Part shown: one piece after another, positions 10,431-12,847 of the stretch
Layout: each line of letters opens with the position of its first letter
Position numbering within the stretch: position 1 is the stretch's first letter
Source of the DNA: a virus
Lineage: Duplodnaviria; Caudoviricetes
DNA length: 51,893 nt
Reading direction: 5' to 3' (one strand)
Virus record (IMG/VR): IMGVR_UViG_3300050019_000211
Location: 1-51,893 of that record
Program-made: the position numbers and the translations under genes
The notes under the pieces: model-generated
What the model was told of the DNA's origin: nothing
Database searches by the model: none
What the model saw: only the letters and a program-made list of their open reading frames with translations

Positions 10431-10450
10431 CGCCTAATCATTGTTAGGCG
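10431..10450 (+). other. attI-like site
   Basis: CGCCTAA-TCATT-GTTAGGC resembles the attI1 simple site (CCCTAAA-ACAAA-GTTRRRY). It lies about 20 bp from the intI start, has no attC hairpin arm before it, and marks the left boundary of the duplicated cassette. Confidence 0.8.
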
Positions 10451-10667
10451 ACAGACAGCGGTTGTGGTCGCCGGCTAGTCGCGTGGCCATTTCCTTTGTG
10501 AGTTCGCTCATTATCAGTAGTCTGTTTCCTTGTAGGACGCGCCAGCCGATATGCGGGATTTCATCGCGGCGATAGCTTTCAATTTTCCAGCGCAGTCGCC
10601 TAACAACCCGCCGGACCTGACGCGGGATACGGCTTGAGGCGAGTTTGGTTGTCTTGTTCGGTTTCAT
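10434..10667 (-). CDS. cassette A gene, hypothetical (77 aa)
   Basis: Starts in the attC R1 loop and stops (TAG) inside attI; duplicate of 12537-12818 up to SPN. Confidence 0.8.
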   Translation of the reverse strand: MKPNKTTKLASSRIPRQVRRVVRRLRWKIESYRRDEIPHIGWRVLQGNRLLIMSELTKEMATRLAGDHNRCLSPNND

Positions 10668-10696
10668 AAAGTTCAGCGCAGGTCAGCTTTTATGTT
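10443..10696 (+). repeat. direct repeat copy 1 of the 251-bp cassette (copy 2 at 12594-12847)
   Basis: Offset 2151 bp; one substitution seen (TAGTCTGTT vs TAGTCCGTT); identity starts and ends at GTT. Confidence 0.95.
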
Positions 10697-10700
10697 AGCT
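10598..10700 (+). other. attC site R1
   Basis: R'' GCCTAAC 10598-10604, spacer AACCC, GCCGGACCTG pairing with CAGGTCAGC, spacer TTTTAT, R' GTTAGCT 10694-10700. Confidence 0.9.
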
Positions 10701-11062
10701 GAAAGGCGCTTTCCACGTTTGAAGGCTTTCCAGTAGTTGTTGCTTCGGCGCTTCCATGCCGCCTTTTTTTGCGGACTGACCGCAAAGCTAGAGAAGTCGT
10801 CGCGTTTTATCATGCCCATCGCCCAGCCGCCGTTGCCCTCCATCACACATTCCGCGCCGGGGATTGCACCTTCCACGAATCCACAGCACTCGACGGCTTC
10901 CTGATACGTCAGGAAGTCGCGGCCATTTGGCCCGTCGTTTGAGTTCCCGACGAAGTAAGACAGGTCATCGTGCTTCTCGTCGCCATCCTCGTAGATGTCG
11001 GGATATTCTTTTTCCACGACACCGAGCTTTGCCTTTTTCGGCAGCCATATTTGCACTTCCAT
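10673..11062 (-). CDS. cassette B gene, hypothetical (129 aa)
   Basis: Ends ANIKADLR, which is encoded by the right arm of attC R1. Confidence 0.75.
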   Translation of the reverse strand: MEVQIWLPKKAKLGVVEKEYPDIYEDGDEKHDDLSYFVGNSNDGPNGRDFLTYQEAVECCGFVEGAIPGAECVMEGNGGWAMGMIKRDDFSSFAVSPQKKAAWKRRSNNYWKAFKRGKRLSANIKADLR

Positions 11063-11087
11063 AAGTTTGATTTTGGTTGTTGTTTTC

Positions 11088-11177
11088 AGCTAACAAATCG
11101 TTGCAGGAAACGCCTATTGGACGCCTCCAGCGAGTCCGGGAGCGCCAGATGCGGCGTTCCTGAACTCTGCGTTCGGC
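11088..11177 (+). other. attC site R2
   Basis: R'' AGCTAAC 11088-11094; GTT(G)CAGGAA(A)CGCC pairs with GGCGTTCCTGAAC; R' GTTCGGC 11171-11177. Confidence 0.92.
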
Positions 11178-11605
11178 TGCCGGATTGCGTCTCCCTTTTT
11201 TTCGTTACAAGGAGCGCACGCCAGTTGGATGTTGTCCCATTGTGTTCCGCCGCCTTTACTGCGCGGCACGATATGATCTCGCGTCATTTGTTCCGGTTCA
11301 AACGGCAGTCCGCAGATGGCACACAGTCCGTTTTGGGCGCGGTATTGGCGCATGAACATTCCACGCCCGACCAGCCATTCAGGGTTTTCGGATATGCTTT
11401 TCGGCCTTTGCATCGCCGTCAGGTTCACGAACATTTTCTCGACGAGGTGGAGTTGCATACAGGCTTTGCAGTATTCGCCGTCCTCGTTGCTGACCACCGC
11501 TACCGCGCCGCAGGACACGCAGGGCCGGCCAGCCGAACAAGCGCATGAAGCCAAAGCGGGGTGTTCCTGGACTTGGGCGGTTTGGTTGCAATTTTGGATG
11601 TTCAT
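11114..11605 (-). CDS. cassette C gene, HNH endonuclease domain protein
   Basis: CAICG...TRDHIVPRSKGG...NIQLACAPCNEKK; ATG at 11605 lies in the attC R3 loop. Confidence 0.88.
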   Translation of the reverse strand: MNIQNCNQTAQVQEHPALASCACSAGRPCVSCGAVAVVSNEDGEYCKACMQLHLVEKMFVNLTAMQRPKSISENPEWLVGRGMFMRQYRAQNGLCAICGLPFEPEQMTRDHIVPRSKGGGTQWDNIQLACAPCNEKKGDAIRQPNAEFRNAASGAPGLAGGVQ

Positions 11606-11641
11606 TTTCAATCGCCGCTTGGCTTATGCGCGACGTTCGGC
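11532..11641 (+). other. attC site R3
   Basis: R'' GCCGAAC 11532-11538; GCGCAT(G)AAGCCAA(A)GCGG pairs with CCGCTTGGCTTATGCGC; R' GTTCGGC 11635-11641. Confidence 0.92.
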
Positions 11642-11859
11642 AACTTGCCCAGAGTGCCTTTAGAGGCCCTGCACTTTGCTTCGAGTTCGGCAATATCACG
11701 GTCGCTTGGCCACATTGTCGCCTTGCGCGATTGGTATTCCCACCACTGCGCCCCTTGGACGAAGGCTATAATCAGTTCATCCGCCGTTGCCGAACAAGTC
11801 GCTGAAGAACGACGCCGAGTATTCCTGCGCTTGGGTGTTGGTTTCGATTTTGTTTGCAT
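11608..11859 (-). CDS. cassette D gene, hypothetical (83 aa)
   Basis: Start in the attC R4 loop; core AFVQGAQWWEY...WPSDR; tail PNVAHKPSGD from attC R3. Confidence 0.75.
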   Translation of the reverse strand: MQTKSKPTPKRRNTRRRSSATCSATADELIIAFVQGAQWWEYQSRKATMWPSDRDIAELEAKCRASKGTLGKLPNVAHKPSGD

Positions 11860-11898
11860 AAATTTAATCGCGGCGCGTCTTAGCTCCGCACGTTAGAC
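11789..11898 (+). other. attC site R4
   Basis: R'' GCCGAAC 11789-11795; GCT(G)AAGA(A)CG(A)CGCCG pairs with CGGCGCGTCTTAGC; R' GTTAGAC 11892-11898. Confidence 0.9.
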
Positions 11899-12116
11899 GC
11901 CTTCGCGGTTCGTGGGTCTTGGGCTTCGTTCCACGGGTTCACACCCGGCTGAGTCACTTGGCCGTTGTTGCGGATGTCAGCCCATGACCATGACTCCGAG
12001 CCGTCCACATGGAGCGCGAAGTTGATTTCTCCGGCTGGCAGTTCCGGGTGGTTGGTTGCGCGCAGGATTTTCTGCACGGCGTCTGCGATTTCACGTTTTT
12101 GTTGTGTTGAGAACAT
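11880..12116 (-). CDS. cassette E gene, hypothetical (78 aa)
   Basis: MFSTQQKREIADAVQKILRATNHPELP...WSWADIRNN; stop lies in attC R4. Confidence 0.8.
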   Translation of the reverse strand: MFSTQQKREIADAVQKILRATNHPELPAGEINFALHVDGSESWSWADIRNNGQVTQPGVNPWNEAQDPRTAKASNVRS

Positions 12117-12120
12117 AGTC

Positions 12121-12210
12121 GTCTAACCCGTCGGTGCAGCGAATGGCGGGATTACGCTGCTTTTGTTTTGGTGCGTCAGCGGCCCGCCATCGCTGACCTC
12201 TGCGTTAGGC
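12121..12210 (+). other. attC site R5
   Basis: R'' GTCTAAC 12121-12127; GGT(G)CAGCGA(A)TGGCGGG pairs with CCCGCCATCGCTGACC; R' GTTAGGC 12204-12210. Confidence 0.93.
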
Positions 12211-12540
12211 CACTTCCTTGTTTATGAGTCCAGCGATCATGTATGCGTCTAGATAGTTTGGGCAGAGACACAACATCCGCTTTAGCATGAAATCTCGAAC
12301 CATCCAGTTTCCTAGGATTTCATTGACTTCGGCTCGCTGCGGGGCGCTAACTGGTTTTAGATAGCCTTCACACAGGATTTTGTTTTCACCACGATGCGAA
12401 CCGATACGGACTTGCCCCGGTGTTTTTGATTTTATGGACGATACGGTTTTGCCACAGATAGAACACGCCACCCGTGGCCTAACAACGCGCTGCACCGCAA
12501 CAGCCGGTGGCGCTTCGGATTGGACGGTTTTTGATTTCAT
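12205..12540 (-). CDS. cassette F gene, hypothetical Zn-finger-like protein (111 aa)
   Basis: CSICG...H...C; start in the attC R6 loop; TAA stop within R'. Confidence 0.75.
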   Translation of the reverse strand: MKSKTVQSEAPPAVAVQRVVRPRVACSICGKTVSSIKSKTPGQVRIGSHRGENKILCEGYLKPVSAPQRAEVNEILGNWMVRDFMLKRMLCLCPNYLDAYMIAGLINKEVA

Positions 12541-12600
12541 AGAGATTTTGTTTCAGTTGGTTGCCCGCTCACCCGGCTGTGGGTGAGCTTGGCGTTAGGC
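12477..12600 (+). other. attC site R6
   Basis: R'' GCCTAAC 12477-12483; GCTGCACCGCAACAGCCGG pairs with CCGGCTGTGGGTGAGC with bulges; R' GTTAGGC 12594-12600. Confidence 0.9.
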
Positions 12601-12818
12601 GACAGACAGCGGTTGTGGTCGCCGGCTAGTCGCGTGGCCATTTCCTTTGTGAGTTCGCTCATTATCAGTAGTCCGTTTCCTTGTAGGACGCGCCAGCCGA
12701 TATGCGGGATTTCATCGCGGCGATAGCTTTCAATTTTCCAGCGCAGTCGCCTAACAACCCGCCGGACCTGACGCGGGATACGGCTTGAGGCGAGTTTGGT
12801 TGTCTTGTTCGGTTTCAT
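12537..12818 (-). CDS. cassette G gene (duplicate of A with a different C-terminal tail, 93 aa)
   Basis: Matches A except one R/G change up to CLSPN, then AKLTHSRVSGQPTETKSL from attC R6. Confidence 0.8.
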   Translation of the reverse strand: MKPNKTTKLASSRIPRQVRRVVRRLRWKIESYRRDEIPHIGWRVLQGNGLLIMSELTKEMATRLAGDHNRCLSPNAKLTHSRVSGQPTETKSL

Positions 12819-12847
12819 AAAGTTCAGCGCAGGTCAGCTTTTATGTT
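12594..12847 (+). repeat. direct repeat copy 2 of the 251-bp cassette
   Basis: See 10443-10696. Confidence 0.95.

Follow-up and report, generated by a model that had tools for sequence, protein, structure and literature searches.

A duplicated gene cassette at the attI site of a predicted integron in an uncultured tailed phage

The integron locus

The window analysed here is a complete IMG/VR virus record, IMGVR_UViG_3300050019_000211 (51,893 nt, linear, 91 % complete by CheckV estimate), which comes from peat soil and is classed as a tailed phage (Caudoviricetes) on finding portal, head-maturation protease and major head protein genes together. It holds a predicted integron, consisting of an integron integrase gene (intI), an attachment site (attI) and a chain of gene cassettes bounded by attC sites (Table 1). 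One cassette of 251 nt, termed cassette X below, is present twice, once next to attI and once further along the array.

The integrase, IntI, scored 265.3 bits against the TIGR02249 model, only just above the cut-off of 265, covering positions 2–313 of 315, and matched PF00589 (3.4e-28). It aligned with VchIntIA (2a3v_A, E 4.6e-44) over residues 15–304 with no break across residues 187–246; the XerC-like 4a8e_A aligned at 21–186 and 247–304 only, skipping that stretch. IntI is therefore predicted to carry the IntI-specific additional domain around patch III (residues 187–246), which is without counterpart in ordinary Xer recombinases. The related loci L004–L007 and L009 are conserved upstream of the intI ATG as far as an AAC some 30 nt away and differ throughout beyond it. 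The border between conserved and variable sequence falls at this same AAC/GTT in six loci, counting the window, where the putative crossover is 30 nt from the intI ATG. This border marks attI as the predicted entry point of new cassettes, with the crossover at G/TT (here and below, a slash inside a motif marks the point of exchange). The attI site also supplies a stop (TAG, 10434–10436) to the open reading frame (ORF) of the first cassette.

Table 1. Integron features and further mapped elements of the window (cassette and attC positions on the plus strand; ORF strand in brackets)
Feature	Position	Strand	Content and basis
intI	9456–10412	-	Integron integrase, 318 aa; TIGR02249, PF00589, 2a3v_A alignment
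attI (putative)	10413–10449	+	L-like GCCTAA 10432–10437, complementary to the R box; R box GTTAGGC 10443–10449; crossover between G10443 and T10444
Cassette 1 (X, copy 1)	10444–10694	+	251 nt; ORF 10434–10667(-); attC 10598–10700
Cassette 2	10695–11171	+	ORF 10673–11062(-), 129 aa, no family
Cassette 3	11172–11635	+	HNH endonuclease ORF 11114–11611(-); PF14279 9.4e-16, PHROGs HNH; attC 11532–11641
Cassette 4	11636–11892	+	ORF 11608–11859(-), 83 aa; attC 11789–11898
Cassette 5	11893–12204	+	ORF 11880–12116(-), 78 aa; attC 12121–12210
Cassette 6	12205–12594	+	390 nt; ORF 12205–12540(-), 111 aa; attC 12477–12600
Cassette 7 (X, copy 2)	12595–12845	+	251 nt; ORF 12537–12818(-); attC 12749–12851
Cassette 8	12846–13270	+	Lar-like ORF 12824–13258(-); PF14354 2.4e-08, phrog_599
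Cassette numbered 10 on the map	13271–13915	+	ORF 13255–13800(-), 181 aa; attC about 13824–13921
Probable last cassette	13916–14160	+	ORF 13843–14142(-); degenerate attC; right border uncertain
Distal cassette	539–1381	+	C5 methylase ORF 615–1361(-); two attCs, 539–648 and 1292–1381; 9 kb beyond intI
X-type attC relic	2266–2357	+	92 % over 92 nt to 10598–10689; both core sites mutated
Divergent small-ORF pair	15067–15264, 15320–15595	-, +	Ribbon-helix-helix-like, read by eye from translations

At least ten cassettes lie to the right of attI as units of 251–650 nt, with borders (G/TT) at 10443, 10694, 11171, 11635, 11892, 12204, 12594, 12845, 13270 and 13915. In eight window cassettes the first ten bases (GTT plus seven) are the exact reverse complement of the cassette's own R'' site, which ends in AAC; the left end of cassette 1, TTAGGCGAC, is complementary in this way to its R'' at 10595–10604. 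The R'' site is followed by an imperfect hairpin of 90–125 nt that closes at the next GTT. Only exact end/R'' pairs were used for mapping, as pairs with at most one mismatch were judged to be at chance level (91 per strand, or 182 on both strands with the same pairs counted twice, against 61–81 in two-strand shuffles). A strict RYYYAAC..GTTRRRY scan with an energy filter and a constrained-fold scan were both too noisy for attC mapping, because random GC-rich sequence folds equally well, and alignment of seven attCs with MAFFT and RNAalifold gave no consensus structure and hence no covariance model. With intI, attI and attC cassettes all recognizable in the sequence, the locus has the make-up of a complete integron.

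A cassette in two copies

The two copies of X, at 10443–10696 and 12594–12847, match over 254 nt with a single mismatch (10523 T, 12674 C), which cannot be chance. The base preceding each copy differs (T and C, respectively), identity stops after the GTT at 10694–10696 and 12845–12847, and the following 30 bases are unrelated. Apart from the 92-nt relic listed in Table 1, this is the sole direct repeat of at least 60 nt in the record. The original prediction, a reading of the letters of this stretch, had described two copies differing by one substitution, with identity beginning and ending at GTT triplets; alignment confirms this, and the repeat does not extend past the triplets. The unit of 251 bp that it gave is obtained when the crossover is placed at G/TT, and the second copy is indeed the seventh cassette on the map, as it had counted.

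The same prediction held that the X protein ends differently in the two places and that two unrelated genes upstream of the copies share a tail. In cassette 1 the X ORF encodes 77 aa ending in SPNND, and in cassette 7 it encodes 93 aa ending in SPNAKLTHSRVSGQPTETKSL. The checked translations of the cassette 2 ORF and the Lar-like ORF both finish in NIKADLR; the final six codons and the stop of the cassette 2 ORF lie within the attC of X.

Recombining strand and attC polarity

The attCs fold as imperfect hairpins with RYYYAAC and GTTRRRY cores; the spacer is unpaired, and one arm bears extrahelical bases, which are about 6 bp apart in a typical attC. In described attC sites the extrahelical bases lie on the AAC arm when the top strand is folded and on the opposite arm when the bottom strand is folded, and the integrase cleaves the bottom strand at AA/C (PMC5027507). 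Twenty-one attCs from the window and three relatives were folded on the strand that is sense for intI. Fourteen of them showed a C bulge and then, 4–7 pairs on, a T bulge, both on the arm opposite AAC; three more were bulged on that arm only, and the remaining four gave branched, uninformative folds. Two of the 21 had AAC-arm bulges in the first 16 pairs, both at the spacer. The intI-sense strand is therefore taken as the bottom strand, with the crossover at G/TT on the plus strand, and this position coincides exactly with the start and end of the X repeat. In a control, Virus Rctr41k (described below), the gene-sense strand bulged on the AAC arm in four of five attCs and on the other arm in none.

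The reverse polarity, in which the minus strand would be canonical, each attC would belong to the upstream gene and the crossover would be at AA/C on the plus strand, was rejected because the duplicated unit, the attI border, a 390-nt deletion found in the population (see below) and the bulges all place the crossover at G/TT. Complementarity between cassette ends and R'' was dropped as an argument on polarity, being symmetric. In the window, in L004–L006 and in Virus Rctr41k, a C is the first base to be extrahelical on the recombined strand, as against 'usually a G' in the description of attC sites in PMC5027507; this may be a trait of this environmental integron clade.

Gene orientation and junction frame

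The HNH endonuclease, the Lar-like protein, the C5 and N6/N4 methylases and the X family all place cassette genes on the bottom strand (minus, in the sense of intI). A codon-usage score, with 11 of the phage's long genes as its training set, favoured the bottom strand for 9 of the 11 cassette rows of the window (the exceptions being both X rows), for example by 28.5 to 0.5 in cassette 2 and by 33.9 to 6.0 for the ORF at 13255–13800. The same strand was favoured in 7 of 8 rows of L004 and in 3 of 3 of L006. The L004 strand calls rest on this score, and a Pfam search of ten L004 ORFs gave one weak UVR match and nothing else. The ORF of cassette 4, with a negative score on both strands, is a candidate gene only. 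The usual integron arrangement, in which each gene is encoded by the attC top strand, is followed 3' by its attC and is read outward from a promoter at attI or intI, was not found in the window.

Ten of the 12 scored window cassette ORFs (X copies counted separately) cross their own left border with the core read as ..N, giving SPN/ND, SAN/IKADLR, QPN/.., LPN/.., ASN/.., RQN/.., QAN/.. and MEN/D, and continue for tails of 1–23 codons; the ORF of cassette 6 stops at its own TAA inside the core site. The tail RQN/ACADLPP.. of the probable last cassette passes the border in the same frame. Seven arrays offer 33 borders, and at 26 of these AAC is a codon (AA/C, Asn) of the longest open frame. The frame that allows a TAA stop in the core is used at six, where five of the six genes end on that TAA, and the third frame at one. 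In 14 long genes of the phage the three phases of AAC triplets number 194, 88 and 109.

In 21 of 26 attCs, the first AAC-frame stop beyond the border is accompanied by an ATG at −5 to +10 nt, compared with 12 and 13 of 26 for the other two frames and a background of 0.378 for stop triplets elsewhere on this strand; attI likewise gives a stop, after 1–7 codons. From these counts we infer that each attC may act as a module providing a stop for the incoming gene and a start for its own, and that the shared frame would let any order of cassettes work. As the genes mostly run over the crossover in one frame and without a stop of their own, rewriting of C-termini would be the rule in this integron. 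The exchange of the X tail is one instance, and the NIKADLR ending common to two ORFs is another. The C-terminal rewriting named in the original prediction is thus real at the level of the ORFs and affects an ORF that belongs to a real family (see below). What that prediction did not contain is that the element is a phage and that all cassette genes are on the recombined strand, making the tail swap general.

Array variants and the origin of the duplication

We favour, with a probability of roughly 0.55, the explanation that X was duplicated from the array into attI by IntI-mediated copy-and-paste. In this process excision takes the bottom strand alone, the donor array is preserved by replication and the circle is inserted at attI, according to the account in Souque et al. 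2021 (PMC8024014); cassette copy-and-paste is likewise treated in Loot et al. 2012 (PMC3458562). The replicative excision and re-insertion at attI invoked by the original prediction is thus documented.

IntI would have excised X from the array as a single-stranded circle by attC x attC recombination; the donor would have been either a replicating genome, which retained its own copy, or a sister genome present in that cell. IntI would then have re-inserted the circle by attI x attC recombination, with the G/TT crossover between 10443 and 10444, to give attI-X-c2..c6-X-c8 (c denoting cassettes) with both copies on one molecule. Each gene would keep its start inside or beside its own attC, would usually lack a stop of its own and would end in the neighbour past AA/C. 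The X tail would accordingly be ND and a stop taken from attI in position 1, and 18 residues taken from the attC of cassette 6 in position 7. A phage has many genome copies per cell, which recombine with one another easily, and the presence of sister genomes would make copy-and-paste easier still.

Population evidence was taken from Logan contigs of peat metagenomes, which are short (k about 31), in runs labelled X1, X2, X3 and X7. Parts of 9900–13400 are present in 20 peat or freshwater metagenome runs from 17 studies; the parts of 9400–15400 left uncovered in some runs (e.g. 12616–13017 in X7) are holes between contigs and no proof of absence. Several arrays differ from that of the window. 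In X1 record 1, intI and attI extend to 10448 and another cassette begins at 10449. A different cassette follows X in X3 (record 18, 10700 onward) and cassette 6 in X7 (record 28, 12599 onward), and an X2 contig has a 390-nt deletion that coincides exactly with cassette 6 (joint 12201 to 12592, nine letters shared). Every variant break point consists of the plus-strand G/TT and a few shared core letters. Short loose ends at 11089–11148, 11794–11833 and 12476–12509 are probably other cassettes sharing an attC arm, and the letters of loose ends match, by eye, none of the ten mapped cassette left ends. The foreign cassettes in X1, X3 and X7 indicate that the population draws on a larger cassette pool. 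Breaks at the same G/TT sites in independent runs support the earlier suggestion of a recently active integrase, and the variants are the picture expected from an active integron in a mixed population, IntI activity itself being predicted.

These break points also bear on a duplication in which the integrase had no part, whether by slippage during replication, template switching at hairpins or illegitimate recombination. Replication can stall at attC hairpins (PMC5737091), which would offer such a route. Nevertheless, both borders of X fall exactly on conserved crossover triplets, one copy is exactly at attI, and population variants break at like sites, one of them by exact loss of a single cassette, and we regard this origin as very improbable.

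All four junctions of X are reached by Logan contigs in X1 and/or X2, the threshold for a junction being 31 letters. The junction from attI into X is reached by X2 record 9 (to 10472), that from X into cassette 2 by X2 record 10 (10443–11118, the sole contig that reaches 31 letters), X1 record 3 and X7 record 25, that from cassette 6 into X by X1 record 7, X2 record 14 and X3 record 21 (to 12621–12623), and that from X into cassette 8 by X1 record 8 (from 12818) and X2 record 16 (from 12826). The repeat forms a separate contig of 255 nt in X1, exactly 10443–10696, at a depth of 26.6, with depths of 18.4 for intI, 15.7 for cassette 2, 14.6 for cassette 6 and 12.2 from cassette 8 onward. X2 record 10 carries C at 10523, so that the X copies in X2 would be identical. 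The proposed event would be recent, because the copies differ by one mismatch in 254 nt in the window and by none in X2.

Several observations weigh against copy-and-paste. A whole copy of X with both flanks is spanned by the IMG/VR assembly alone and by no Logan contig, and every junction contig but one has 20–30 letters on the X side. Depth cannot tell an arrangement A-X-B-X-C from A-X-C plus other genomes carrying B. As the C at 10523 stands in the X2 copy joined to cassette 2, the mismatch is no marker of either copy across samples. A 35-mer specific for X matched no other record in metagenome_contigs or viral_contigs, from which near-identical records may be missing, and IntI, whose activity is predicted, is barely at the cut-off of its family. 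Single-X arrays exist, and with a different cassette behind cassette 6 in X7, where 12616–13017 is uncovered, a chimeric path is conceivable.

Several of these points would fit a chimera of assembly or population, in which each genome has one X and differing contexts were threaded through a shared 254-nt node. Arrays are polymorphic within and between runs, and the 173 nt from the mismatch to the right end of X exceed common k-mer sizes. On the other side, X1 and X2 hold all four junctions, and the X depth of 26.6 is near the sum of its exits (15.7 + 12.2). A chimera would also require that the only observed left neighbour of cassette 2 and the right neighbour of cassette 6, X in both cases, come from different genomes, although cassettes 2–6 are covered by overlapping X1 contigs (records 3–7). 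Assemblers, moreover, collapse repeats much more often than they duplicate them. A chimera is therefore considered improbable.

Insertion of a block would leave a final structure and borders identical to those of copy-and-paste. Here, a multi-cassette circle or a second genome carrying X-c2..c6 would have recombined through the attC of cassette 6 into the attI of a genome with attI-X-c8, so that the copy in position 7 would be the resident and 10444–12594 the newcomer. In X7, X is joined to cassette 2 and cassette 6 to another cassette, with 12616–13017 uncovered, so that the block X-c2..c6 exists apart from X'-c8, and many phage genomes per cell would ease such an exchange. The block would, however, need a six-cassette donor and excision at attI or at a preceding attC, which are rarer than single-cassette events in tested integrons (as reported in PMC8024014), and an attI-X-c8 array is directly shown by no contig. 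Block insertion is thus an unlikely explanation, if one to be taken seriously.

Taken as copy-and-paste, the duplication itself is a further natural example of a known process. It resembles the cases of Souque et al. 2021 (PMC8024014) in having two identical copies, one of them first in the array and both bounded by the crossover triplet. Those cases concern class 1 integrons on plasmids under antibiotic selection, where top-strand genes are expressed from Pc and the copy in first position gains expression. In the window, by contrast, the element is a phage, the genes point to attI, the presumed transcript has position 1 at its far end and it is the protein tail that changes.

The protein encoded by cassette X

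The reading of X as possibly non-coding, considered because its codon score was about zero and a shared-word homologue search returned its own paralogue only, was dropped after an exhaustive HMMER search found seven proteins, five of them small. The closest has 65 % identity (E 6.3e-16) and the others 46–55 % (E 1e-9 to 4e-8). The alignment of these sequences is invariant at 21 columns within residues 27–69, outside which the sequences diverge, and one homologue finishes in ..CLPPN and a different tail. The conserved core stops about five residues before the cassette border, leaving the tail swap outside it. The single mismatch between the copies changes residue 49 (R or G), a column at which homologues carry G or K. 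Judged from this conservation, X is predicted to be a real small basic protein (pI 11.5) of a conserved family without a name.

A structure model (pLDDT 75.9) showed a helix, three strands and a helix. No family match for X was found in Pfam, NCBIfam or PHROGs, comparison of the model with solved folds gave none that was convincing (best E 0.12 in Foldseek, best Z 4.7 in VIA-align), and an alignment search of viral_contigs gave no relative.

Genomic surroundings of the array

Nearly all genes of the record are on the minus strand. The portal, head-maturation protease and major head protein genes (phrog_21, 2.1e-08; phrog_53, 1.9e-46; phrog_212, 3.1e-10, respectively) are at 46.6–51.6 kb, and 0–9.2 kb encodes a DnaB helicase, DUF1376, DUF5131 and DUF4326 proteins and two DNA methylases. 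The N6/N4 methylase ORF, 2–613(-), starts within the loop of the attC at 539–648. The two attCs of the distal cassette show the same C and T bulge pattern as those of the array, and one additional exact end/R'' pair occurs in this distal group (1375 with 1991–2000). The relic at 2266–2357, between ORFs 1369–2217(-) and 2505–2939(-), has GCCGGAC in place of the R'' core and no GTT at its right end, and looks like a cassette that became fixed.

Within the Lar-like ORF of cassette 8, an R''-like site at 13004–13013 pairs exactly with the left end of the cassette and is without a right hairpin arm; cassette 8 may be two cassettes fused into one gene with a zinc-ribbon-like C-terminal part. The region 15067–15595, with the divergent ORF pair, is likely the start of a minus-strand early operon running through the array into intI. 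The pair, with promoter-like hexamers between its ORFs, is possibly a phage switch and the start of a transcript through the array, intI and dnaB. Promoter-like minus-strand sites were found at 15315–15287 and 15274–15246, with four in the region in total and 3.5 expected from shuffles, i.e. no excess. A terminator scan likewise gave no excess over shuffles, and an Rfam search of the window gave no match.

Besides intI, no second tyrosine recombinase and no serine recombinase was found on the record. IntI being the sole recombinase found on a record with an estimated completeness of 91 %, the phage either may not integrate at all or may rely on IntI and attI for lysogeny. Genes for a papain-family peptidase (PF00112, 1.8e-11) and a protein with an LPD29 domain (3.6e-22) are at 19174–19953 and 39516–40610, respectively, the latter being among the few plus-strand genes.

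Related loci and known systems

Relatives of IntI were found in five IMG/VR contigs (56–72 % identity) and in a contig of a metagenome-assembled genome labelled Polyangiaceae (73 %), and all six have the same layout as the window. Four further contigs of metagenome-assembled genomes (Limisphaerales, Verrucomicrobiia or Verrucomicrobiota) carry distant or partial IntI sequences, with 48–83 % identity over the best segment. Chains of one to nine cassettes stand upstream of intI in L004–L009; the end/R'' chains that reach the AAC before intI number nine in L004, four in L006, two in L005, one each in L007 and L008 and four or five in L009. No duplicated cassette was found in the arrays of L004, L006 and L009. 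In L005, a 105-nt direct repeat (1217–1546; two copies, 93 % identical, 225 nt apart) lies outside the mapped array. The first cassette by attI in L006 (945–1616) encodes, on the bottom strand, a DNA-modification protein of the Mom family (PF25680, 1.5e-13), which together with Lar and the methylases fits a theme of counter-restriction.

To our knowledge, complete integrons that belong to a phage lineage, and were not picked up from a host, have hardly been described. Among 50,697 deposited phage records, no IntI was more than 40 % identical to that of the window. Qi et al. 2023 (PMC9892861) report three complete integrons and one In0 in 10,705 phage genomes, presented there as host or class 1 pieces in temperate phages or an inactive prophage. 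The window shares with these phages intI, attI, attC cassettes and DNA methyltransferase cassettes. It is unlike them in that its IntI is less than 40 % identical to deposited phage IntI proteins and has relatives of 56–73 % identity with the same layout.

In the 'reverse integron' of the Treponema type, intI is transcribed towards attI, in the orientation of the attC sites, as described in PMC3607928 and PMC4889954. The window resembles this type in that intI and the cassette genes share a direction of transcription. In contrast, transcription of its intI leads away from attI and runs against the attC top strand, as is ordinary, with the array upstream and the genes turned, and the Treponema-type layout is thus not present in the window. 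It is present in the control, Virus Rctr41k (KX853513; L014), where the region 4589–9886 holds an IntI-like gene annotated as xerD (35.6 % identical to IntI of the window) and at least five attC-bounded cassettes after it, one with a methyltransferase; the record annotates no integron. Like the window, Rctr41k is an uncultured tailed phage with a co-directional cassette chain and, by complement, a C as first bulge of the bottom strand. Its array, however, lies downstream of the integrase gene, with its cassette genes encoded on the attC top strand, a mirror solution to the same problem.

No description of cassette genes systematically on the bottom strand was found by full-text search, although one may be in print, for instance in the supplementary tables of Qi 2023 and Cury 2016. 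Bacterial chromosomal and mobile integrons are described as storing anti-phage defence cassettes (10.1101/2024.07.02.601686, 10.1101/2024.07.02.601719). Both those and the window's integron appear as shuffling stores for the conflict between phage and host; in the present case it is the phage that owns the store, whose recognizable cargo belongs to counter-restriction (Lar, two methylases and HNH, with Mom in L006).

Implications for the phage lineage

What is new lies in the integron that hosts the duplication: it appears to be native to a phage, to encode its genes on the recombined strand, to hold to a fixed junction frame and to have stop and start modules built in. We tentatively propose, without holding it to be the probable account in all its parts, that a phage lineage of peat, soil and sludge, probably with Verrucomicrobiota-like hosts, carries a native integron in its early operon as a store of counter-restriction and accessory genes read as a transcript in one direction. 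To fit such a transcript, cassettes would be reversed relative to all described integrons, with the attC 5' of the gene and stopless genes on the recombined strand. The Asn frame at AA/C and the modules with a stop next to an ATG, present in every attC and in attI, would turn any order of cassettes into a coupled polycistron ending in intI, and IntI may serve lysogeny.

At least seven related records carry this phage-lineage integron, and its cargo looks counter-restrictive, mirroring the anti-phage defences stored in bacterial integrons. The rule by which recombination uses the bottom strand and the top strand carries the gene has been taken as the reason for cassette expression. The family represented by the window breaks the second half of that rule and still looks active, which makes the constraint on cassette orientation testable. 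In this family, cassette order would edit C-termini and the coupling of starts and stops, a layer of combinatorial variation not considered for integrons.

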